IMG/VR virus record: IMGVR_UViG_3300025168_000032
Coordinates: 96,001-160,000 of that record
Strand: one strand, 5' to 3'
Length of the DNA: 64,000 bases
From: a virus
The notes below the pieces were generated by a model. It saw nothing but the letters and a program-made list of their open reading frames with translations. It did no database searches and was not told where the DNA came from. Below, in pieces: positions 54,963-62,964 of the stretch (its first letter is position 1; the number at the start of each line of letters is the position of its first letter). The position numbers were made by a program, and so were the translations under genes.

Positions 54963-55327
54963 GTTATTTTAAGAAGTTTATAGCAATTTCAGCTTTTATG
55001 ATGGCACCTTTCTACGAAGCTTGTGCAATGCGAGTTCTTATAAAGGATAATCATTACACAACCCAGTCAGCGACCACAGTCTACAACGTAGAAGAGTACC
55101 ACAAAGAGACTCAACAACCCCAACCCACAGTTGGGTCACAAAGTCCAACATCCAAGCGCAAAATAAAGCGTAAAAAGAAAGCAATACGCAGAGTTCCCAA
55201 GCACAAAAAAAGAAAAAAGATTAGTAAGCGTCCATCTCGTAAAGTTAAAAAAGAATGGAAGCGAAAAGGCAGAAAAGCAGTTAATAAAAGAAATAAAAAA
55301 CACAAATATAAAAAAAGGGACAAATAA
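54959..55327 (+). CDS. Signal-peptide-bearing Lys/Arg-rich protein
   Basis: Hydrophobic N-terminus, extremely basic C-terminal half; stop falls inside first palindromic promoter. Confidence 0.55.
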   Translation: MSYFKKFIAISAFMMAPFYEACAMRVLIKDNHYTTQSATTVYNVEEYHKETQQPQPTVGSQSPTSKRKIKRKKKAIRRVPKHKKRKKISKRPSRKVKKEWKRKGRKAVNKRNKKHKYKKRDK

Positions 55328-55361
55328 TGTCCTACCCGTATACTACCTACTATGATACATT
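55318..55361 (+). promoter_or_regulatory. Palindromic early promoter module, copy 1
   Basis: GGACA-AATAA-TGTCC-TACCCG-N17-TACATT. Confidence 0.85.
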
Positions 55362-55383
55362 ATAGACAAGACAGGAGAGTGCG

Positions 55384-55515
55384 ATGAAAAACAACCTATT
55401 TATTTTGATATCAGTGGCACTTCTTATTGTAGTGGCTGATCCCAGATGGGCTTTCCTGATTTCTTGTTTAGTTTTAACCACAATATTGCTTTCCATTGGA
55501 GGTAACAATGAGTAG
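55384..55515 (+). CDS. 43-aa two-helix membrane peptide (not in ORF track)
   Basis: AGGAGA RBS after promoter copy 1; MKNNLFILISVALLIVVADPRWAFLISCLVLTTILLSIGGNNE. Confidence 0.55.
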   Translation: MKNNLFILISVALLIVVADPRWAFLISCLVLTTILLSIGGNNE

Positions 55516-55801
55516 TTTATTTTTTGGAGGGGAAAAAGCCCCTAAAGAGGAAGCAGAAGCAGCCCTCATGAAAGACATGGTAGAATATACCGATAACCGA
55601 TTTTGGGTCCGTTTCGAGAGTGATGACACCAGCACACATCTAACCGCCATTATTGAGAGTAAGCACAACGCCACATCTTCACTATTTAAGTTAAAAAAAC
55701 CTTTGCCGGCTAAATATATGGGCTGGCGATTGATTGTTAAATCAGTTCCGCCTAACTATATAGAATATATTTTGCTTGCAAAGGAGAAAGCTAATGATTA
55801 G
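55508..55801 (+). CDS. Hypothetical protein
   Basis: GGAGG RBS. Confidence 0.6.
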   Translation: MSSLFFGGEKAPKEEAEAALMKDMVEYTDNRFWVRFESDDTSTHLTAIIESKHNATSSLFKLKKPLPAKYMGWRLIVKSVPPNYIEYILLAKEKAND

Positions 55802-55976
55802 GCCATTTAAAATAACAAAAAAACACTTAGGTAAGTACGAAGAACTCTCAAATTATGATCTTGGAATGTATGCAATCCAAGTCAGACCAGAACAACCCCT
55901 GATGGTGTACGAAACCATTCAGATAGCGGTCAAAGCATACAGTTATTTTCAGAACATAATCAAAAAGGACAATTAA
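55794..55976 (+). CDS. Hypothetical protein
   Basis: AGGAG RBS; stop lies in promoter copy 2. Confidence 0.55.
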   Translation: MIRPFKITKKHLGKYEELSNYDLGMYAIQVRPEQPLMVYETIQIAVKAYSYFQNIIKKDN

Positions 55977-56010
55977 TGTCCTACCCACCTACCCCCGAGC
56001 ATGATATGTT
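55967..56010 (+). promoter_or_regulatory. Palindromic early promoter module, copy 2
   Basis: GGACA-ATTAA-TGTCC-TACCCA-N17-TATGTT, CCAAGGAG RBS. Confidence 0.85.
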
Positions 56011-56033
56011 ATGTATACAACCAAGGAGATAGT

Positions 56034-56279
56034 ATGAATGAGAAACTTGAAGCGATCAAAGAAGCAATAACCTTTATTAGGCACAATTGGCTCGATAACT
56101 CTGGTATATGGAGAGGCGAACTAAATGACTTTGTTGGGGCCATCAAACTAAGCAATGTCTCAGGTCGCGAGGTCACGCGCTTAGTCAAAGCTATTGCTGA
56201 TGGTGAACACACACCAGTAGACGGGATAACTGGAACTTTACTTGGAGGAAAGTTGACAATCGTTAGGGTTTCGAGATGA
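56034..56279 (+). CDS. Hypothetical protein
   Basis: CCAAGGAG RBS supports ATG 56034. Confidence 0.6.
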   Translation: MNEKLEAIKEAITFIRHNWLDNSGIWRGELNDFVGAIKLSNVSGREVTRLVKAIADGEHTPVDGITGTLLGGKLTIVRVSR

Positions 56280-57070
56280 TAGGTATAGAGTGGGGATCAG
56301 GAACTGTACGTTGCAGCTTTTGTGGCAAAAGGGGGCACAATATCTCCTCCTGTAGCCATGTCGAGGAAGTATTCCAGACCATCACGAAGAACAACCAAGA
56401 CACAACAGATCTAACGTTCACTCAAAGACAAGCCGTGCATGAAATGAAAAATAGAACCGTCCGAAACCAAAAAAGAAAAAACCGTAGAAATGCTAAGAAA
56501 GGCTCACGCTGTTCTTTTTGTAGAGAGGGAGGGCACAGGAGAACTACCTGCACTAAACACAAGTCTTTTGGAAAAAAAATATATAGAGCAAACCAAATCT
56601 GGAAAAAAGAGTTTGCTGAACTTGTTAACGAGACTGGAATAGGCGTAGGGTCGCTTATCGAGTTTCCGAGAGCTTCAATCATGTGGTATGCAGCAGATAA
56701 CGACAAACTAAGGGGAATAGTTACTGCTTTTAATATGGATAGCCTAAACATATTTTCTGCTTGGCCTAATCAAGATAAATACAGAACCGTACCCAATATG
56801 ATTGTTGTAGACTGTGCGGATTATAAGCAGGTTAATTGGCCATTCAATAAAATCCAGCCGTTTGTTGATAACGGCCTAACTTTATCACGATGGGGTAACG
56901 TCACAACCGATATTATTTGTAGTGCTCCATGGCAGCCACCTACTGGGTGGCTGGAAAGCAAAGAAAACCCAGAGATTGAATATGTACTTGGCAGTCTTTC
57001 TCGTGAACATAGAGCGTATGCAGCAATTGACACCCTTGTAAAAAACTGGCTAAACAGGGATAATAAATGA
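56276..57070 (+). CDS. Double CCHC zinc-knuckle protein with SH3/KOW-like C-terminal part
   Basis: CSFCGKRGHNISSC and CSFCREGGHRRTTC (both CX2CX4HX4C). Confidence 0.8.
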   Translation: MIGIEWGSGTVRCSFCGKRGHNISSCSHVEEVFQTITKNNQDTTDLTFTQRQAVHEMKNRTVRNQKRKNRRNAKKGSRCSFCREGGHRRTTCTKHKSFGKKIYRANQIWKKEFAELVNETGIGVGSLIEFPRASIMWYAADNDKLRGIVTAFNMDSLNIFSAWPNQDKYRTVPNMIVVDCADYKQVNWPFNKIQPFVDNGLTLSRWGNVTTDIICSAPWQPPTGWLESKENPEIEYVLGSLSREHRAYAAIDTLVKNWLNRDNK

Positions 57071-57136
57071 GCAAGACGCTTAGGAGAGCAGTGATACGCT
57101 CAAGAACAAACAGCGAATGGTATAACACCAAAAGGC

Positions 57137-57180
57137 GGTCAAAAAATGACCTACCCGATTCACCAAAGGCAAGATATATT
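57137..57180 (+). promoter_or_regulatory. Palindromic early promoter module, copy 3
   Basis: GGTCA-AAAAA-TGACC-TACCCG-N17-TATATT, CCAAGGAGG RBS. Confidence 0.8.
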
Positions 57181-57204
57181 ACTAACACACCCAAGGAGGA
57201 TGTA

Positions 57205-57375
57205 ATGGTTGACGTTGACAAGATAATACAATATGAAAATGGAGAGATGCAGGAAGATGAAGTAATAGAGTTCTTTCAAGAGCTTATTAACACAGGTCAT
57301 GCTTGGACCCTCCAAGGGCATTACGGTAGAGTTGCCAGCGGTCTTATTAAGGCTGGCCTCTGTACAAGACCATGA
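57205..57375 (+). CDS. Small conserved-looking phage protein
   Basis: RBS after promoter copy 3; IIQYENGEM...FFQELINTGHAWTLQGHYGR. Confidence 0.7.
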   Translation: MVDVDKIIQYENGEMQEDEVIEFFQELINTGHAWTLQGHYGRVASGLIKAGLCTRP

Positions 57376-57539
57376 TGATCGGGGACTTGATCTATATTTC
57401 AGATTGGAAGGAGTATGCTATTGTAATGGAGAAGGGCGAGGTTTTTACTGATGAATGCTCATGGCGCGTGTCGATTATCTCAGACCCTGAATTGGTCGAA
57501 GTTTTTAGTTATGAGATGGAGGTGATTAATGAAGCATGA
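57372..57539 (+). CDS. 55-aa GDLV SH3/KOW-like protein (not in ORF track)
   Basis: MMIGDLIYISDWKEYAIV...MEVINEA*. Confidence 0.65.
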   Translation: MMIGDLIYISDWKEYAIVMEKGEVFTDECSWRVSIISDPELVEVFSYEMEVINEA

Positions 57540-57747
57540 ACCAGCTAAATACGAAGTTGGTGACTTGGTTGGCATTGGCTGGAATGGTAAGTTAAAATGC
57601 CCAAATCCAGCCATTGTGATAAAGGTTTTAGACCCCGTTTCTATCTCTTGCGGTAGCACCTTGTATGTCGTCAGACCAGTTAAGGACCATGAGAGTGAGA
57701 GTTGGTGTGACTATACGCATCTGACCCCTTGGGTAACGGACAAATAA
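57529..57747 (+). CDS. GDLV SH3/KOW-like protein
   Basis: YEVGDLVGI...AIVIKV...YVVRP. Confidence 0.7.
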   Translation: MKHEPAKYEVGDLVGIGWNGKLKCPNPAIVIKVLDPVSISCGSTLYVVRPVKDHESESWCDYTHLTPWVTDK

Positions 57748-57781
57748 TGTCCTACCCACCTACCCCTGCCTGTGATATACT
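57738..57781 (+). promoter_or_regulatory. Palindromic early promoter module, copy 4
   Basis: GGACA-AATAA-TGTCC-TACCCA-N17-TATACT. Confidence 0.85.
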
Positions 57782-57805
57782 ATATACATAACCAAGGAGA
57801 ACAAA

Positions 57806-57859
57806 ATGAACGAACATGAAGAAGAAGAAAGAATGTGGAGAACGTGGGGTGACCAATGA
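57806..57859 (+). CDS. 17-aa mini-ORF/remnant
   Basis: CCAAGGAGAACAAAATG context; MNEHEEEERMWRTWGDQ*; ATGA-coupled to next gene. Confidence 0.5.
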   Translation: MNEHEEEERMWRTWGDQ

Positions 57860-58029
57860 AAGTAGGAGATTTAGTAAGATACGATATGGATGATCTTTGC
57901 GTAGGTGTTGTCACCTGCATCGATCCAGAAGAGCTTGGTGATGATGGCGAAGTGGAAGTCGTTTGGGTCGGTGGTGCTGTAAGCAACCATTCAACTTATT
58001 TTTTGGAGGTGATCAGTGAAAATAAATGA
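57856..58029 (+). CDS. 57-aa GDLV SH3/KOW-like protein (not in ORF track)
   Basis: MKVGDLVRY...VGVVT...EVVW...FLEVISENK*. Confidence 0.7.
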   Translation: MKVGDLVRYDMDDLCVGVVTCIDPEELGDDGEVEVVWVGGAVSNHSTYFLEVISENK

Positions 58030-58210
58030 TTTAGTAAAAGTAGGTGACTTAGTAAGGTACAAACATCGTTACATAGGAGAACAGTTTGTAGTTGTAGCCG
58101 TTCGCACAAACCACACCAGCCCCAAACGTCTAAAGGTGCTGTGCGTATCAGCCAAGACCCTAAAAAAAACAAGATGGTCTTGGTCATCGACCGTTAGTGT
58201 GCTTGCGTGA
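58016..58210 (+). CDS. GDLV SH3/KOW-like protein
   Basis: VKVGDLVRY; GGAGG RBS, GTG start. Confidence 0.7.
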   Translation: MKINDLVKVGDLVRYKHRYIGEQFVVVAVRTNHTSPKRLKVLCVSAKTLKKTRWSWSSTVSVLA

Positions 58211-58413
58211 ATGTTGGTGATTTGGTCTGGGTATACCGCAATGCTCACCCAAGCCGAGAAAGGTTTATAGGTGTGATCACTGAGATCGAAGACCCTTGGG
58301 GTTCGGATCGTGGGTGTAGCGTGTTTGTTACCTTTTTTGACGGAGACTGGGGAGTATATCACCCATCCCAAATCAATCTTATCCCAAAAGAGAAAGAACA
58401 TGAAAGTAGGTGA
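58207..58413 (+). CDS. GDLV SH3/KOW-like protein
   Basis: MNVGDLVWV...IGVIT...VFVTF. Confidence 0.7.
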   Translation: MNVGDLVWVYRNAHPSRERFIGVITEIEDPWGSDRGCSVFVTFFDGDWGVYHPSQINLIPKEKEHESR

Positions 58414-58564
58414 TTTAATAGTGCCAACCAAAAGGATGCGAGACTTCGGCTATCACGAGGTTGGTATTGTAATTAGGATATGGGGTGGCAGATCGGTGGT
58501 CGCCTTTCCAGATGGAAGCTCCCAGACTTTCCACCCATCTCAATTGAAACCGGACAAAAATTGA
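58400..58564 (+). CDS. GDLV SH3/KOW-like protein
   Basis: MKVGDLIVP...VGIVI...VVAFPDG...QLKPDKN*. Confidence 0.7.
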   Translation: MKVGDLIVPTKRMRDFGYHEVGIVIRIWGGRSVVAFPDGSSQTFHPSQLKPDKN

Positions 58565-58595
58565 CCTACCCATGTACCCCCGAGCATGATATATT
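58552..58595 (+). promoter_or_regulatory. Palindromic early promoter module, copy 5
   Basis: GGACA-AAAAT-TGACC-TACCCA-N17-TATATT. Confidence 0.85.
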
Positions 58596-58618
58596 ATATG
58601 TAGACCCAAGGAGAAACC

Positions 58619-59323
58619 ATGAGAAGAAGAACATCAGAAGAAATCGCAGCAGCGATTGAAAGAGCAGAACAAATGGGAAGACATAGATCCGTAAAGGTTA
58701 TGGCTGATATGAAAACGCAATTTGACAGCCGAGGGTGTCTATCAGATCGCCAATGGGACTACTTGAACAAACTTATGCTTGATAATTGCAAAGCAGCATT
58801 GGTGGATTTTAATGAATACTTTGAACGCTTTACCACAGATAAAGAGTTTAGGGAAAAGGCGGAGGTCGTGTCTCGATATTACCAAGGGGCCGGACAATAC
58901 TACGTCAGAGCAGCGACGCAAACACTGATAGCATTAAAGAGTAATGACAAGAATGATTTGCCACCGTACCATTCTTTTTCCAAAATGATAAATAACAAAT
59001 ACGCTGATAAGGTATGGGATAGCCATAGTAAACCACCTTTATATTCAGCAGGTGACTTGATAAAAATACGCTCTACTGGTATCAATCGGATATGGAGCCA
59101 AAGAAAAAGCACCGAAGAGGAGCAAGCTGGGATCGAGAACCTCAACAGCCACCCTTGTTTGGTCATCAAGGCAAACGCGAAACCCATCACTACTGCGCTT
59201 CAATACAAACCAAAACAGGGTGGCGCAAGGGTTTACTCTGTTATGCCAGTCGGCAGCACGTTGATTTACTATATCTTAGAATGTGATTTGAAGAAGAATC
59301 GCACACCAAAAGCCAAAAAATAG
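58619..59323 (+). CDS. Hypothetical protein with LSDRQ motif and C-terminal SH3/KOW-like domain
   Basis: GCLSDRQWDYL; LYSAGDLIKIR...CLVI...YSVMP. Confidence 0.65.
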   Translation: MRRRTSEEIAAAIERAEQMGRHRSVKVMADMKTQFDSRGCLSDRQWDYLNKLMLDNCKAALVDFNEYFERFTTDKEFREKAEVVSRYYQGAGQYYVRAATQTLIALKSNDKNDLPPYHSFSKMINNKYADKVWDSHSKPPLYSAGDLIKIRSTGINRIWSQRKSTEEEQAGIENLNSHPCLVIKANAKPITTALQYKPKQGGARVYSVMPVGSTLIYYILECDLKKNRTPKAKK

Positions 59324-59331
59324 GGACTGAT

Positions 59332-59598
59332 ATGGATATTATATTTGAAGAGGTGCCGCTGCCATTCAAACTTGGCCTTGGAAACAAAAATGGCAAGATA
59401 ACAAGAGTGCTGGTGCACCATAAGGGAAATTTTTATATAGTATCAGAGAACACAGCCCTAAAAGAGACGCTGGTTTTTCCTGCTTCTCCAACGGGCGAGA
59501 TACTTGACTGGGTTGAAGTGGGCGGCGGAGACGGATTAACACTAAAAGAGGTTTTGGCTAACTTCGACCAGAACCTACATTCCGAGATGTATTTTTAA
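59332..59598 (+). CDS. Hypothetical protein
   Basis: 88-aa ORF between gene and promoter copy 6. Confidence 0.6.
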   Translation: MDIIFEEVPLPFKLGLGNKNGKITRVLVHHKGNFYIVSENTALKETLVFPASPTGEILDWVEVGGGDGLTLKEVLANFDQNLHSEMYF

Positions 59599-59601
59599 GC
59601 C

Positions 59602-59645
59602 GGACATTTTCTGACCTACCCATCTACCCCTGCCCATGATACATT
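59602..59645 (+). promoter_or_regulatory. Palindromic early promoter module, copy 6
   Basis: GGACA-TTTTC-TGACC-TACCCA-N17-TACATT. Confidence 0.85.
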
Positions 59646-59669
59646 GTATACAGAACCAAGGAGAACCCA

Positions 59670-60539
59670 ATGAAAATATTTGAAGAAAAGAACAGACCCA
59701 CACACAAAAGCAGTGCGAACGCTTGTGGCTATTGCCGCAACACAGGACACAATAGATCCAACTGTCCTCATGCACCAGAAGACTGGTCACACTTTACCAC
59801 TTATCAAATACCATTGAAGACCTCAAAGGTACAATCTCAATGGATAAAGTATCCAAAGTATTGGGGTGCTTGGTATGAAGAGTGTAAAAAGACTGTGGAA
59901 CTTCAACAGCGCAATGCACAAAAGGTCAAGGCTAAAAGATCGACAACCAGACACTGTGGTTTCTGTGGTGATGCTGGTCACACTCGTCGTAACTGCTCAG
60001 AGATGGAGGAGTTCCTTAAACAGTGCTACAAAGCCAATGAGAACTGGCGAAGGGCTGCATACAACATTCTCGTTAAAGAGCATGGCATTGATATAGGGGC
60101 AGCGGTGCAAGTTTCCCAAAGTCAGTGGGTTGGGGGTGAGAATATTAAGACTGAACATATTGGACTCATCACCTCCGTTAATTGGGATAGTTTAAATGTT
60201 ATGACTGCTTATGACAGCGGCTATGATTGGCAGCGGTATGCCCAATGTATTGACGTTAGGGTCATGGTTGACGGAAAAGATCATCGTCTTTCACTAAAAG
60301 ACAAGCTTCACGGTACGTCTCTTTCAGAGGTAATCAACAAGAGAAACACAAATACAGGCTATTATTATCAGCAACTTTCCTTAGACAAGGTGATCGGCAA
60401 GTCAGCGCAGCCACTAAAAGAAGAATGGGTCACGTCTTACAAAGACGCTTTTGATTACCTTGCTAAGAAGCTTAGTTTAGAACAGCTTGAAGATCGTGGG
60501 ATACTCAGTCATATCCAAAGCTGGGCAAATCGGTCATAA
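59670..60539 (+). CDS. Double CCHC zinc-knuckle protein, paralog of 56276..57070
   Basis: CGYCRNTGHNRSNC and CGFCGDAGHTRRNC; shared YKANENW and GLITSVNWDSLNV segments. Confidence 0.8.
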   Translation: MKIFEEKNRPTHKSSANACGYCRNTGHNRSNCPHAPEDWSHFTTYQIPLKTSKVQSQWIKYPKYWGAWYEECKKTVELQQRNAQKVKAKRSTTRHCGFCGDAGHTRRNCSEMEEFLKQCYKANENWRRAAYNILVKEHGIDIGAAVQVSQSQWVGGENIKTEHIGLITSVNWDSLNVMTAYDSGYDWQRYAQCIDVRVMVDGKDHRLSLKDKLHGTSLSEVINKRNTNTGYYYQQLSLDKVIGKSAQPLKEEWVTSYKDAFDYLAKKLSLEQLEDRGILSHIQSWANRS

Positions 60540-60575
60540 TCTGTCCTACCCAATTCCTATCCACCATGATACATT
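60532..60575 (+). promoter_or_regulatory. Palindromic early promoter module, copy 7
   Basis: GGTCA-TAATC-TGTCC-TACCCA-N17-TACATT. Confidence 0.85.
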
Positions 60576-60599
60576 GTATACAGAACCAAGGAGAACAAA

Positions 60600-60752
60600 A
60601 TGAAGTTTAAAGTAGGAGATTTAGTAAAGACCCACCGTGGCAATGTTGCCCTCGTTACAGAGGTTGGCGAAGACTGGTGCAATATACTATTTTGCAACAG
60701 TGGGTTTTTAAGAACTGGCTTTCCAGCGTGGTGGTTAGAGGTGGTACAATGA
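60600..60752 (+). CDS. 50-aa GDLV SH3/KOW-like protein (not in ORF track)
   Basis: MKFKVGDLVKTHRGNVALVTEV...WLEVVQ*. Confidence 0.7.
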   Translation: MKFKVGDLVKTHRGNVALVTEVGEDWCNILFCNSGFLRTGFPAWWLEVVQ

Positions 60753-60898
60753 AAATCGGTGATTTAGTAAAATACGATTACGATGGAGATACCGGCATAG
60801 TCATTGACATAGATGCAACTGGTATGCTTTTCGTTCACTGGAGTGACGGCAAAGAAGGGTGGCATATCCACAGCGAGTTGGAGGCAGTATGCAAGTAG
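60749..60898 (+). CDS. GDLV SH3/KOW-like protein
   Basis: MKIGDLVKY..DTGIVI...FVHW...ELEAVCK*. Confidence 0.75.
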   Translation: MKIGDLVKYDYDGDTGIVIDIDATGMLFVHWSDGKEGWHIHSELEAVCK

Positions 60899-60908
60899 GT
60901 GATTTAGT
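60879..60908 (+). repeat. 30-bp gene-junction repeat, copy 1
   Basis: TGGAGGCAGTATGCAAGTAGGTGATTTAGT. Confidence 0.85.
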
Positions 60909-61044
60909 CAAGAACAGGCACGGCAACACGGGGATCATTACAAAACGATATGGCTTCAAGAAACGGAGGACTTGGTGGGTGCATTGGCTTTGTGGTGAGG
61001 ACTGCCCGATTCATGAGCGATTTGTGGAGGCAGTATGCAGATAG
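60889..61044 (+). CDS. GDLV SH3/KOW-like protein
   Basis: MQVGDLVKN..NTGIIT...WVHW...FVEAVCR*. Confidence 0.75.
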   Translation: MQVGDLVKNRHGNTGIITKRYGFKKRRTWWVHWLCGEDCPIHERFVEAVCR

Positions 61045-61054
61045 GTGATTTAGT
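61025..61054 (+). repeat. 30-bp gene-junction repeat, copy 2
   Basis: TGGAGGCAGTATGCAGATAGGTGATTTAGT (2 mismatches to copy 1). Confidence 0.85.
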
Positions 61055-61271
61055 AAGGATAGATAAGAGTTCCGCTATGGTTGGTCACGTTGGCAAGGTG
61101 GGCTTAGTTGTCAGAAGAGTGAAACAAACATTGAAGCCATCTAACACGTGGCTGATCGCGTTTTCAGATGGCAGTACGGTTATTTTTCATAGAGTAGATT
61201 TATTAGAGGTGCCAAATGAAAATAGGAGATTTAGTACAACTATCAGCTTATGGGGAAGCGAGGAACCATAA
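61035..61271 (+). CDS. GDLV SH3/KOW-like protein
   Basis: MQIGDLVRI...VGLVV...WLIAF...LLEV. Confidence 0.7.
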   Translation: MQIGDLVRIDKSSAMVGHVGKVGLVVRRVKQTLKPSNTWLIAFSDGSTVIFHRVDLLEVPNENRRFSTTISLWGSEEP

Positions 61272-61431
61272 CCACGGTTGGTATGGTGGCTGGGGGCTTA
61301 TATTGGAAATCCATAATGACTCAACCTATCCCATCAAAGCCCAGTGGTACAATACCCGTAGTGGCAAAGATCAAGGCGGAGCGCGATTCCACCCAAGAGA
61401 ATTGAAGAAATATAAACCGGACAAAAATTGA
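61216..61431 (+). CDS. GDLV SH3/KOW-like protein
   Basis: MKIGDLVQL...WGLILEI...KAQW...ELKKYKPDKN*. Confidence 0.75.
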   Translation: MKIGDLVQLSAYGEARNHNHGWYGGWGLILEIHNDSTYPIKAQWYNTRSGKDQGGARFHPRELKKYKPDKN

Positions 61432-61462
61432 CCTACCCATTTACCCCTGACCATGCTATATT
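61419..61462 (+). promoter_or_regulatory. Palindromic early promoter module, copy 8
   Basis: GGACA-AAAAT-TGACC-TACCCA-N17-TATATT. Confidence 0.85.
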
Positions 61463-61486
61463 ATGTACAGAACCAAGGAGAACAAA

Positions 61487-61657
61487 ATGCAAGTAGGTGA
61501 TTTAATGATTGACGAAAAGACCTTGAGGGAAATAGGGGAAGCAGTTTATGTCATCTTTCTTGGTTACAACCAATGGGGTGAGATCAAGGTTATGCTTCCA
61601 GACGGATTTGTTTACCAAGGCTGCGAATTGGACTTCAAGGAGGTAGTATGCAAGTAG
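61487..61657 (+). CDS. GDLV SH3/KOW-like protein
   Basis: MQVGDLMID...FKEVVCK*. Confidence 0.7.
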   Translation: MQVGDLMIDEKTLREIGEAVYVIFLGYNQWGEIKVMLPDGFVYQGCELDFKEVVCK

Positions 61658-61667
61658 GTGATTTAGT
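61638..61667 (+). repeat. 30-bp gene-junction repeat, copy 3
   Basis: AGGAGGTAGTATGCAAGTAGGTGATTTAGT (2 mismatches). Confidence 0.85.
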
Positions 61668-61866
61668 AAAGCAAAAAAGCGATTGGGTTCGGCACAATCC
61701 GTGGATGAGTGGTACTGAACTTGATGACAGCCCAGACATCTTGGGAATTATAGTAAAGGTTGAGGTTCCAGCGTGTTCCATAACATCTGGCTGGTATATA
61801 ATTGAATGGCTGAACGGTGGAAGGAACCACACAAAAGGAGACAGGTTGGAGGCAATATGCAAGTAG
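61648..61866 (+). CDS. GDLV SH3/KOW-like protein
   Basis: MQVGDLVKQ...LGIIVKV...YIIEW...LEAICK*. Confidence 0.75.
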   Translation: MQVGDLVKQKSDWVRHNPWMSGTELDDSPDILGIIVKVEVPACSITSGWYIIEWLNGGRNHTKGDRLEAICK

Positions 61867-61876
61867 GAGATTTGGT
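61847..61876 (+). repeat. 30-bp gene-junction repeat, copy 4
   Basis: TGGAGGCAATATGCAAGTAGGAGATTTGGT (3 mismatches). Confidence 0.85.
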
Positions 61877-62069
61877 AACAAGAGATAAGTACCACATGAG
61901 TCATGGCAAATTATTCGGAACCATCGTAAAAAGGAAGCCGCTGGAATTTTGCTTGGGCCCCGACGGAAAGCAGGCATATCAATATAAAATCTATTGGTTG
62001 TGTTGTCAAACAAAGATTTGTGCCGATGACTGGTGGATCGATCAATTTTTGGAGGCAGTATGCAAGTAG
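61857..62069 (+). CDS. GDLV SH3/KOW-like protein
   Basis: MQVGDLVTR...FGTIVK...YKIYW...FLEAVCK*. Confidence 0.75.
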   Translation: MQVGDLVTRDKYHMSHGKLFGTIVKRKPLEFCLGPDGKQAYQYKIYWLCCQTKICADDWWIDQFLEAVCK

Positions 62070-62079
62070 GTGATTTGGT
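62050..62079 (+). repeat. 30-bp gene-junction repeat, copy 5
   Basis: TGGAGGCAGTATGCAAGTAGGTGATTTGGT (1 mismatch). Confidence 0.85.
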
Positions 62080-62236
62080 AACCCACAGACCAACAGGAGC
62101 GGTGGGTATTATTATAGAAGAGAACGGGACCAGTGTCTGTATCGTGTGGAACTACGACCCATTGCATAAAGACGAGGGTGAAGAGGAGTGGATAAGCAAG
62201 TTTTTCATCGAAAACCTAAAACCGGTCAAAAAATGA
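62060..62236 (+). CDS. GDLV SH3/KOW-like protein
   Basis: MQVGDLVTH...AVGIII...CIVW...LKPVKK*. Confidence 0.75.
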   Translation: MQVGDLVTHRPTGAVGIIIEENGTSVCIVWNYDPLHKDEGEEEWISKFFIENLKPVKK

Positions 62237-62267
62237 CCTACCCATCCACCCCTGCCTATGCTATATT
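62224..62267 (+). promoter_or_regulatory. Palindromic early promoter module, copy 9
   Basis: GGTCA-AAAAA-TGACC-TACCCA-N17-TATATT. Confidence 0.85.
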
Positions 62268-62292
62268 ATATACATAACCAAGGAGAAAACTT

Positions 62293-62583
62293 ATGACCTT
62301 TCGCAATATGAAACAACTAAAATCTTTCAGTCACTCGCAAGGATGGCACTACTTTGCTTGGGATGTTGTGCATGGTCGTCGAACCCAAAAGACCCCACCT
62401 TATGGAGGCTGCGTTTTTGTAGCATCGGAGAAACATAGTGATGGAACTCGATACTACGATATTCTTAGAATTATGCCCTTGGGTAACATTAAGTATGTAC
62501 CCAGCAATAGGCCGTTCACGAACAGAAAGAAAGCTCACGCTTTTGCAAAAGCCTTCGCAAAGAAAATCTCACAACGGACATAA
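62293..62583 (+). CDS. Hypothetical early protein
   Basis: CCAAGGAG RBS; stop inside promoter copy 10. Confidence 0.65.
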   Translation: MTFRNMKQLKSFSHSQGWHYFAWDVVHGRRTQKTPPYGGCVFVASEKHSDGTRYYDILRIMPLGNIKYVPSNRPFTNRKKAHAFAKAFAKKISQRT

Positions 62584-62619
62584 ATTGTCCTACCCATTCA
62601 GACTGAAACAGCATATATT
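62576..62619 (+). promoter_or_regulatory. Palindromic early promoter module, copy 10
   Basis: GGACA-TAAAT-TGTCC-TACCCA-N17-TATATT. Confidence 0.85.
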
Positions 62620-62643
62620 ACTTATACCAACCAAGGAGAGAGC

Positions 62644-62868
62644 ATGTCAAAACAAACAACATTCATCGTATCAGGCTGGGTAGAGCGTCACTACCGACTG
62701 GAAATAGAAGCTTCTTCTTATGAGGAGGCAGAAAGGATAGCAGAGAGCAAGCTTGATTATTCAGAGGGTTCCGAGCTTGATGATTATGAGGATGGTACAC
62801 ACGTTCGCATTAGTGATGTAGAGTGTGAAGACCCCGAATGGGATGAAGAATCCGAAGAAGAATTATAA
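62644..62868 (+). CDS. Small acidic protein, DpnD/PcfM-like pattern
   Basis: TFIVSGWVERHYRLEIEASSYEEAERIA. Confidence 0.6.
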   Translation: MSKQTTFIVSGWVERHYRLEIEASSYEEAERIAESKLDYSEGSELDDYEDGTHVRISDVECEDPEWDEESEEEL

Positions 62869-62871
62869 AAC

Positions 62872-62915
62872 GGACAAAAAATGTCCTACCCAAACAGACC
62901 TAAACTACTTATATT
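62872..62915 (+). promoter_or_regulatory. Palindromic early promoter module, copy 11
   Basis: GGACA-AAAAA-TGTCC-TACCCA-N17-TATATT. Confidence 0.85.
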
Positions 62916-62964
62916 ATAGATACAAAACAAACACAAACTTTAACTTTCCAAAAGGAGTCCTATC

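Follow-up and report, generated by a model that had tools for sequence, protein, structure and literature searches.

Repeated dyad-promoter cassettes with TACCC in the -35 slot of an uncultured marine phage: putative activator-gated early promoters

Introduction

The small-gene region of an uncultured marine phage, only distantly T4-like, carries a repeated cassette in which a 15-bp dyad, GGWCA-N5-TGWCC (W, A or T), is followed directly by a hexamer TACCCR (R, A or G) in the place of the -35 box, then by a 17-nt spacer and a -10 hexamer of the form TAnnnT. The window, by which we mean the whole 64,000-nt stretch that was analysed, comprises bases 96001-160000 of the 185,652-bp IMG/VR virus record IMGVR_UViG_3300025168_000032 (~92% complete, 40% G+C); positions below are those of the window unless marked as genome positions. 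We read the cassettes as repeated early promoters of the PeSL type known from T4-type phages, gated by an activator on the dyad for which the host nucleoid protein Fis would be the best candidate, and give this statement as a whole a probability of roughly 0.45. The architectural part of it, that the dyad is an activator site placed against a promoter, we consider probable. New here are the replacement of the -35 box by TACCC and the lineage distribution of that replacement.

Results

An array of repeated promoter-like cassettes on one strand

An earlier reading of the letters alone (hereafter the sequence-only reading) had listed 11 palindromes followed by TACCCR in the window. A search permitting two mismatches recovered GGWCA-N5-TGWCC-TACCCR at all 11 starts without a single mismatch, compared with a chance expectation of 0.16 from 100 shuffles, none of which reached 11. 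The whole record holds 15 full copies, all on the + strand, between genome positions 151318 and 162773. Exactly 17 nt separate TACCCR from TAnnnT in 15/15 copies, as had been reported for the 11 copies of the window, and the -10 hexamers are the four types already named (TATATT, TACATT, TATGTT and TATACT). Genome-wide, TACCCR-N17-TAnnnT occurs 15 times on the + strand, every time inside the array, and once on the - strand; TACCC is never found as a promoter box in this genome without an abutting dyad. A TG extension of the -10 at positions -15/-14 was seen in 8/11 copies of the window, 8/15 copies of the genome and 122/235 promoters of a metagenome set (see below), and G at -14 in 13/15 genome copies and 203/235 metagenome promoters. 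A putative ribosome-binding site, CCAAGGAG or CCCAAGGAG, lies upstream of 9/11 start codons, also in line with the sequence-only reading, and the start codon is found 22-27 nt after the -10 in 14/15 cassettes. The stop codon of the upstream open reading frame (ORF) falls inside the dyad in 10/15 cassettes, either as a central TAA or as the TGA of TGACC. Together these features support taking the sites for promoter modules, presumably active ones, as had been proposed.

At three further dyads a gap of 9-10 nt leads to TTGACA or TCGACA, and TATATT stands another 16-17 nt downstream. All 18 dyad cassettes of the genome are on the + strand within 14 kb, with none elsewhere in the 186 kb (Table 1). 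Plain TTGACA-N17-TAnnnT promoters lacking a dyad are present elsewhere in the genome, for example before replication genes. A generic sigma-70 consensus scan misses the TACCC cassettes because their -35 is off-consensus.

The dyad is phased to the promoter, and the -35 box degenerates only when the dyad abuts it

In IMG/VR, 219 relatives of the AAA ATPase behind cassette 11 were found, some of which carry 8-25 dyad copies confined to one small-gene region of 14-22 kb; among relatives at similar distance the counts are 0, 2, 3 or 8-25. The distance from the end of the dyad to the -10 is 22/23 nt in 87/131 distinct sites, 32/33 nt in 11/131 and 42/43 nt in 20/131, compared with a flat null of ~2% per position, and the 10-nt inserts behind this phasing are unrelated sequences from five phages. 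The dyad stays on one helical face relative to the promoter. The identity of the -35 box depends on dyad position: perfect TTGACA is present in 2/89 abutting promoters versus 30/33 spaced ones (p = 8e-23). G at -14 is found in 83/89 abutting promoters. Phasing and the -35 rule fit the pattern expected of an activator that works from one face of the helix and replaces -35 recognition at its closest position, and are in keeping with the earlier suggestion of an activator site with a presumed centre near -43. A role as terminator or recombination site is unlikely, because neither predicts 10-bp phasing or the -35 rule.

The promoters with a 20-nt gap in two relatives (L022 and L038) contain a semi-conserved A-rich insert (g.yaaagtaaca...aaaac) between dyad and TTGACA, which resembles an UP element between a distal activator site and the -35.

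TACCC as a lineage-specific occupant of the -35 slot

The promoter of the ATPase gene allows the same position to be followed across relatives. In relatives without the dyad, TTGACA-N17-TAnnnT is preceded by an A/T-rich stretch; in those with it, the dyad is accompanied by TCGACA, TTGACT or TTGAAA; and this phage combines the dyad with TACCCA-N17-TATATT at the same spacing, so that TACCCR does occupy the ordinary -35 position, as first noticed from the letters alone. Each lineage has its preferred abutting hexamer, namely TCGACA (L010, L011, L013), TTGnnn (L015, L022, L038) or, here, TACCCA. The TACCC form is common to the closest relatives (L111, L097/L113, L126 and L127), whose GroEL is 83-85% and whose DnaE is 86% identical to that of the phage. 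Orthologous cassettes of relatives retain the half-sites, TACC and the -10 while their spacers diverge. The full composite was found in 109 marine metagenome contig stretches, with up to 11 copies per stretch; they contain 256 distinct dyads, 235 of which have TACC next to them, and in 101 of these 235 TACC promoters (about 45%) a second TACC box follows 8 or 11 nt after the first. Some abutting promoters on diverged contigs of the TACCC lineage have other hexamers (GAGCTA, TTCCCT, TCCCCA). These comparisons mark TACCC as an occupant of the -35 slot that is specific to its lineage and kept by selection.

In the closest TACCC-type relatives (L111, L113/L097, L126) the contigs end inside the cassette array, which limits comparison on the downstream side; the array repeats perhaps break short-read assemblies of these phages.

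The sequence-only reading had suggested scanning candidate host genomes for the same motif. In 596 Gb of prokaryote genomes (185,579 species) the composite gave 8 scattered single matches, about the number expected by chance, and a host regulon of the same composite design was rejected on this ground. Gating by a host regulator, the wider idea behind that suggestion, stays plausible in that the dyad fits the Fis core motif (see below). The sole match in a marine single-cell genome (L142) is unrelated to the phage. Heptamers of the NarL type, TACYYMT, are read in pairs by helix-turn-helix proteins of the GerE/LuxR type; some copies here (TACCCAT, TACCCCT) match this heptamer, with no 7-2-7 arrangement and no GerE domain found in the phage.

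The dyad pairs too poorly for a hairpin

If the dyad were a 5-bp stem, its central pair would consist of the two W positions, which vary almost independently of each other. They are non-complementary (A/A or T/T) in 41/132 distinct dyads from the phage and its IMG/VR relatives (Fisher p = 0.085) and in 112/256 distinct metagenome dyads, an unpairable share of 31-44% of copies across both sets. By RNA folding, perfect copies reach -6 to -7 kcal/mol and mismatched ones -1 to -2 kcal/mol, the latter no better than shuffles. No T-run or U-tract follows the dyad on the + (coding) strand, and no terminator was called on that strand at any dyad, the only + strand candidates in the region being three weak, unrelated ones. 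Hairpin or terminator identity was rejected on the pairing statistics, the folding energies and the missing U-tract, and a known RNA family was rejected for want of any Rfam match to the cassettes. The dyad is best taken for a docking site for protein on double-stranded DNA rather than a hairpin.

On the - strand (55318-62886) several dyads are followed by T-rich tails that were scored as weak antisense terminators; the tails arise because the + strand is A-rich upstream of the dyads.

The dyad follows the rules for Fis sites

All dyads have the form G..CA-N5-TG..C, with G at -7, C at +7 and the CA and TG pyrimidine-purine steps at +/-3-4. Over 132 sites the five central positions are 86, 98, 99, 99 and 69% A/T, G at -8 occurs in 1/132 and C at +8 in 1/132. 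Published rules for Fis sites describe a 15-bp core with G at -7, C at +7, pyrimidine-purine steps at +/-3-4, an A/T-rich centre of 5 bp with its narrow minor groove, and no G-8/C+8 (PMC4784862); the effect of the centre is described in PMC3711457. The Fis consensus is GNTYAAAWTTTRANC (PMC6907758), which the GGTCA...TGACC form of the dyad fits exactly. According to the references listed in PMC4784862, Fis is a class II activator at proP P2, where it sits at about -41, and acts from upstream sites at rrnB P1. As far as its bases go, the dyad conforms to every published rule for a high-affinity Fis site. Activation by Fis depends on the helical face. We tentatively put forward host Fis, or a functional equivalent, as the best candidate reader of the dyad, and regard it as a lead.

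Search for phage-encoded readers

Appropriation of the host polymerase in the manner of T4 MotA/AsiA, or an alternative sigma factor, had been suggested from the letters alone. These suggestions found no support: a six-frame search of the 186-kb record with the MotA and AsiA models (PF09114 and PF09010) yielded nothing at E<=1, and no homologue of sigma region 4 (two models), of a GerE-type protein or of a T7-type RNA polymerase scored above threshold in the phage. The best match to a Fis-type helix-turn-helix (PF02954) in the phage scored 11 bits, short of the cut-off. In Pfam, NCBIfam and PHROGs, neither the small ORFs of the array nor the candidate regulators had an informative match, and no DNA-binding domain was detected in the small ORFs tested; a comparison of 9 dyad-rich with 23 dyad-poor loci revealed no ORF within 10 kb on either side that tracks the presence of dyads.

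Two small ORFs are restricted in distribution. One of 81 aa (56034-56279) is found only in TACCC-type contigs, and one of 84 aa (genome 164722-164976) lies behind a promoter with dyad and TCGACA; both are absent from 10/10 complete non-TACCC relatives. They are weak candidates for a protein that might read TACCC, and carry little weight because lineage-specific orphan ORFs are numerous. An AlphaFold model of the 81-aa ORF was unusable (pLDDT 55), and an Atlas search with it returned no match.

Cargo genes and leaders of the cassettes

Positions and individual features of the cassettes are collected in Table 1. Their main cargo is a set of 50-90-aa paralogues that start M-K/Q-V/I-G-D-L-V (GDLV-type; 57856-58564, 60600-62236 and many other places, also in L009, L050 and L066) and are found in all relatives examined. 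The conserved GDLV start is encoded by AAGTCGGTGACTT, which is palindrome-like but coding; AAGTC-N3-GACTT was accordingly rejected as a second palindrome in relatives, as it codes for the MKVGDLV N-terminus. Two paralogous proteins of 264 and 289 aa (56276-57070 and 59670-60539), each with two CCHC zinc-knuckle motifs, are kept in most relatives with or without the dyad and have no family match in Pfam, NCBIfam or PHROGs. Long CA-rich leaders (AAAACAAACA...) stand between -10 and start codon at the ATPase promoter (62916-62964) and at the three TTGACA-type dyad promoters (genome 164400-164495, 164691-164721 and 165327-165371), and similar leaders are present in orthologous promoters of relatives.

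Table 1. Dyad cassettes of the array (cassettes 1-11 in window positions, all others in genome positions)
Feature	Position	Strand	Elements and genes presumably driven
Cassette 1	55318..55361	+	GGACA-N5-TGTCC (55318-55332), TACCCG, 17 nt, TACATT; TAA stop of upstream ORF in dyad centre; drives small ORFs 55384-55976
Cassette 2	55967..56010	+	Dyad, TACCCA, second TACCCC box 8 nt after the first, TG-extended TATGTT; drives lineage-specific 81-aa ORF and 264-aa CCHC zinc-knuckle protein
Cassette 3	57137..57180	+	GGTCA-N5-TGACC, TACCCG, 17 nt, TATATT; AG instead of TG before -10; orthologue present in relative L097
Cassette 4	57738..57781	+	Dyad, TACCCA, second TACCCC box, TG-extended TATACT; drives GDLV-type small ORFs
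Cassette 5	58552..58595	+	GGACA-N5-TGACC (centre unpairable; RNA fold only -1.0 kcal/mol), TACCCA, TG-extended TATATT; drives 234-aa ORF 58619-59323
Cassette 6	59602..59645	+	GGACA-N5-TGACC (unpairable), TACCCA, second box, TG-extended TACATT; drives 289-aa CCHC zinc-knuckle protein; orthologue present in relative L111
Cassette 7	60532..60575	+	GGTCA-N5-TGTCC (unpairable), TACCCA, TG-extended TACATT; drives run of GDLV small ORFs
Cassette 8	61419..61462	+	GGACA-N5-TGACC (unpairable), TACCCA, second box, TG-extended TATATT; TGA of right half-site is stop of upstream ORF
Cassette 9	62224..62267	+	GGTCA-N5-TGACC, TACCCA, second box CACCCC, TG-extended TATATT; drives 96-aa ORF
Cassette 10	62576..62619	+	Dyad, TACCCA, 17 nt, TATATT (no TG); drives 74-aa acidic ORF
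Cassette 11	62872..62915	+	Dyad, TACCCA, 17 nt, TATATT, long CA-rich leader; drives AAA ATPase (62965 onward) and downstream 393-aa gene
Four full cassettes just beyond window	160222, 161681, 162455, 162773	+	Same full motif
Three TTGACA/TCGACA-type dyad promoters	164347, 164638, 165274	+	9-10 nt gap

The phage and its possible hosts

The phage has a gp23-type capsid protein and a contractile sheath, and its gene set also includes a DnaE-type polymerase, DnaB, GroEL and a class II ribonucleotide reductase, with almost all genes on the + strand. Three tRNA genes are uninformative about the host, and DNA comparison found no cultured relative with a known host. The nearest capsids, ~48% identical, are those of Flavobacterium and Microcystis phages, and metagenome-assembled genome (MAG) labels on related capsid contigs are mostly Legionellales, Acidiferrobacteraceae and Gammaproteobacteria, with Pirellulales and Flavobacteriales also present. 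In a stretch of ~7 kb outside the window (genome 40.8-47.8 kb) the ORFs of either strand are all short and have little support, and tRNA genes are absent. The T4 late box TATAAATA showed no enrichment in the phage genome.

Discussion

Proposed mechanism

In the mechanism that we propose, host sigma-70 RNA polymerase would use repeated early-promoter cassettes of the PeSL type. The 15-bp dyad, C-GGWCA-W5-TGWCC, would dock a dimeric, probably DNA-bending protein, which presumably activates rather than represses; it would be followed by the hexamer of the -35 slot, the 17-nt spacer and a TAnnnT -10 that carries G at -14 in nearly all copies, and, downstream of the -10, by a conserved leader and a strong Shine-Dalgarno site. 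Where the dyad abuts the promoter (centre ~-43), the bound protein would take over -35 recognition as class II activators do, and the abutting hexamer would thereby be free to depart from TTGACA, with TACCC(A/G) having become fixed in this sub-lineage. Where the dyad lies one or two turns further upstream (~-53 or -63), perfect TTGACA would be retained. With Fis as the reader, early genes would be expressed according to how the host is growing, and the repeated cassettes may serve in addition as recombination joints for swaps of small genes.

Several points weigh against this interpretation. The three dyad centres assume a start site 7 nt after the -10. The dyad, with its invariant GG and CC, is far more uniform than natural Fis sites; its dominant GGACA form deviates from the preferred T at -5, and C at -8 is not the best flank. 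The dyad would suit a dimer encoded by the phage just as well. The MAG labels give no more than a weak hint of a gammaproteobacterial, Fis-bearing host. Finally, a simple model in which the -35 is not needed leaves the strict retention of TACCC and the second box unexplained.

Alternative explanations

The same architecture would result if the dyad were read by a phage-encoded dimer, made early or delivered with the virion, that switches the small-gene region on, or later off. Half-sites that are invariant over several hundred sites suit a dedicated regulator better than Fis, and the restriction of dyads to one region per genome points the same way; however, no neighbouring ORF tracks the dyads, the small ORFs tested have no DNA-binding domain, and the patchy dyad counts among relatives are easier to reconcile with a host factor that is always available. 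We regard such a dimer as unlikely, though worth serious consideration. It is a good deal more doubtful that a phage factor, together with a dimer on the dyad, reads the often paired TACCC box in replacement of sigma region 4 and so defines a delayed-early or middle promoter class. The exact placement of TACCC in the -35 slot, the selection on it in 235 promoters and the frequent second box would suit such a factor, as would the TTGACA promoters elsewhere in the genome and at the three spaced dyads, a possible immediate-early set, one of which drives the 84-aa ORF. Yet no MotA, AsiA, sigma region 4 or GerE homologue was found, TACCC never acts without an abutting dyad, unrelated hexamers take its place in some diverged promoters, and the 81-aa and 84-aa candidates are weak. 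Improbable to the same degree is the corollary that a sigma appropriation unrelated in sequence to that of T4 MotA/AsiA operates in a widespread marine phage lineage.

TACCC, single or tandem, might instead serve a phage repressor as operator for closing down the early cassettes later in infection, activation then depending on the dyad and the extended -10 only. Overlap with -35 and spacer is the classic position for repression, tandem boxes stand at fixed offsets, and the TTGACA promoters of replication genes lack TACCC; but family searches of the phage ORFs yielded no candidate repressor, and more than half of the promoters have a single box, so that we hold this very improbable. Still less credence is given to a classical PeSL function, with the dyad as stem-loop terminator, insulator or recombinase site and no promoter role. 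Termination by the PeSL stem-loops of RB49 has been demonstrated (PMC2839356), and both the folding of the perfect copies and the T-rich tails on the - strand could be cited for it, but the frequent mismatch at the centre of so short a stem, the lack of a U-tract on the coding strand and the phasing with its -35 rule are not what a terminator or recombination site would lead one to expect.

Significance

In hundreds of promoters these phages offer a natural series, one activator-type dyad whose distance from the core promoter is 0, 1 or 2 helical turns, with the -35 box degenerating only at the closest position and one sub-lineage having fixed a wholly non-sigma hexamer, TACCC. Two questions could be tested on the series: by what means activation of the class II type makes -35 recognition dispensable, and whether early expression in marine T4-like phages is linked to the growth state of the host via Fis. 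A reader specific to TACCC, should there be one, would mean that replacement of the -35 arose independently for a second time, the first being T4 MotA/AsiA. Exchange of the many small orphan genes of these phages takes place at joints that the cassettes mark.

Comparison with known systems

The sequence-only reading had described a new promoter class. It is not wholly new, as its architecture is that of the PeSL (promoter-early stem-loop) and PmSL (promoter-middle stem-loop) cassettes of the T4-type phages RB49/phi1, T4/PST and KVP40/nt-1, in whose hyperplastic regions a stem-loop, a promoter and a Shine-Dalgarno site recur as a unit that mediates modular shuffling, the Mot box replacing the -35 in PmSLs (Arbiol et al. 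2010, PMC2839356; Comeau et al. 2014, PMC4122927). The likeness extends to the repeated intergenic unit of dyad, promoter, Shine-Dalgarno site and start codon before small variable genes of one hyperplastic region, to the clustering of dyads in one region, also in complete relatives, and to indels and gene moves at cassette borders: this phage, L111 and L097 differ in the presence or place of modules, and the breakpoints lie at cassettes. The PmSLs also provide the precedent for replacing the -35 by another box. Unlike PeSLs, the dyads here are not hairpins or terminators and are phase-locked to the promoter, and the -35 slot holds TACCCR in 15/18 cassettes, with the -10 and the 17-nt spacing ordinary; unlike PmSLs, the substitute is TACCCR, without a detected MotA or AsiA.

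Similarities to the Fis-activated promoters rrnB P1 and proP P2 are the 15-bp G...C core with A/T centre and pyrimidine-purine steps, a single helical face for the site, which lies upstream of the -35 or overlaps it, and a poor -35 where it is overlapped; the A-rich stretches between distal dyad and -35 in relatives recall the UP element of rrnB P1. The positions differ, being presumably -43, -53 and -63 here versus the classical -41 and -71, and the sites here are more uniform. Like T4 middle promoters, the cassettes of this T4-like phage pair a non-sigma box in the -35 region with an ordinary TAnnnT -10. The box here is TACCCR at -35 to -30, whereas the Mot box is TGCTT centred near -30; no homologue of MotA or AsiA was found, and TACCCR needs an abutting dyad, unlike the autonomous MotA boxes. 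With class II promoters of CRP, FNR and NtcA the cassettes would share a dimer site that abuts or overlaps a weak -35, the putative activator compensating for the missing -35 contact, but the dyad here is 5-N5-5 (15 bp) rather than 5-N6-5 or 5-N4-5, and its half-sites have another sequence.

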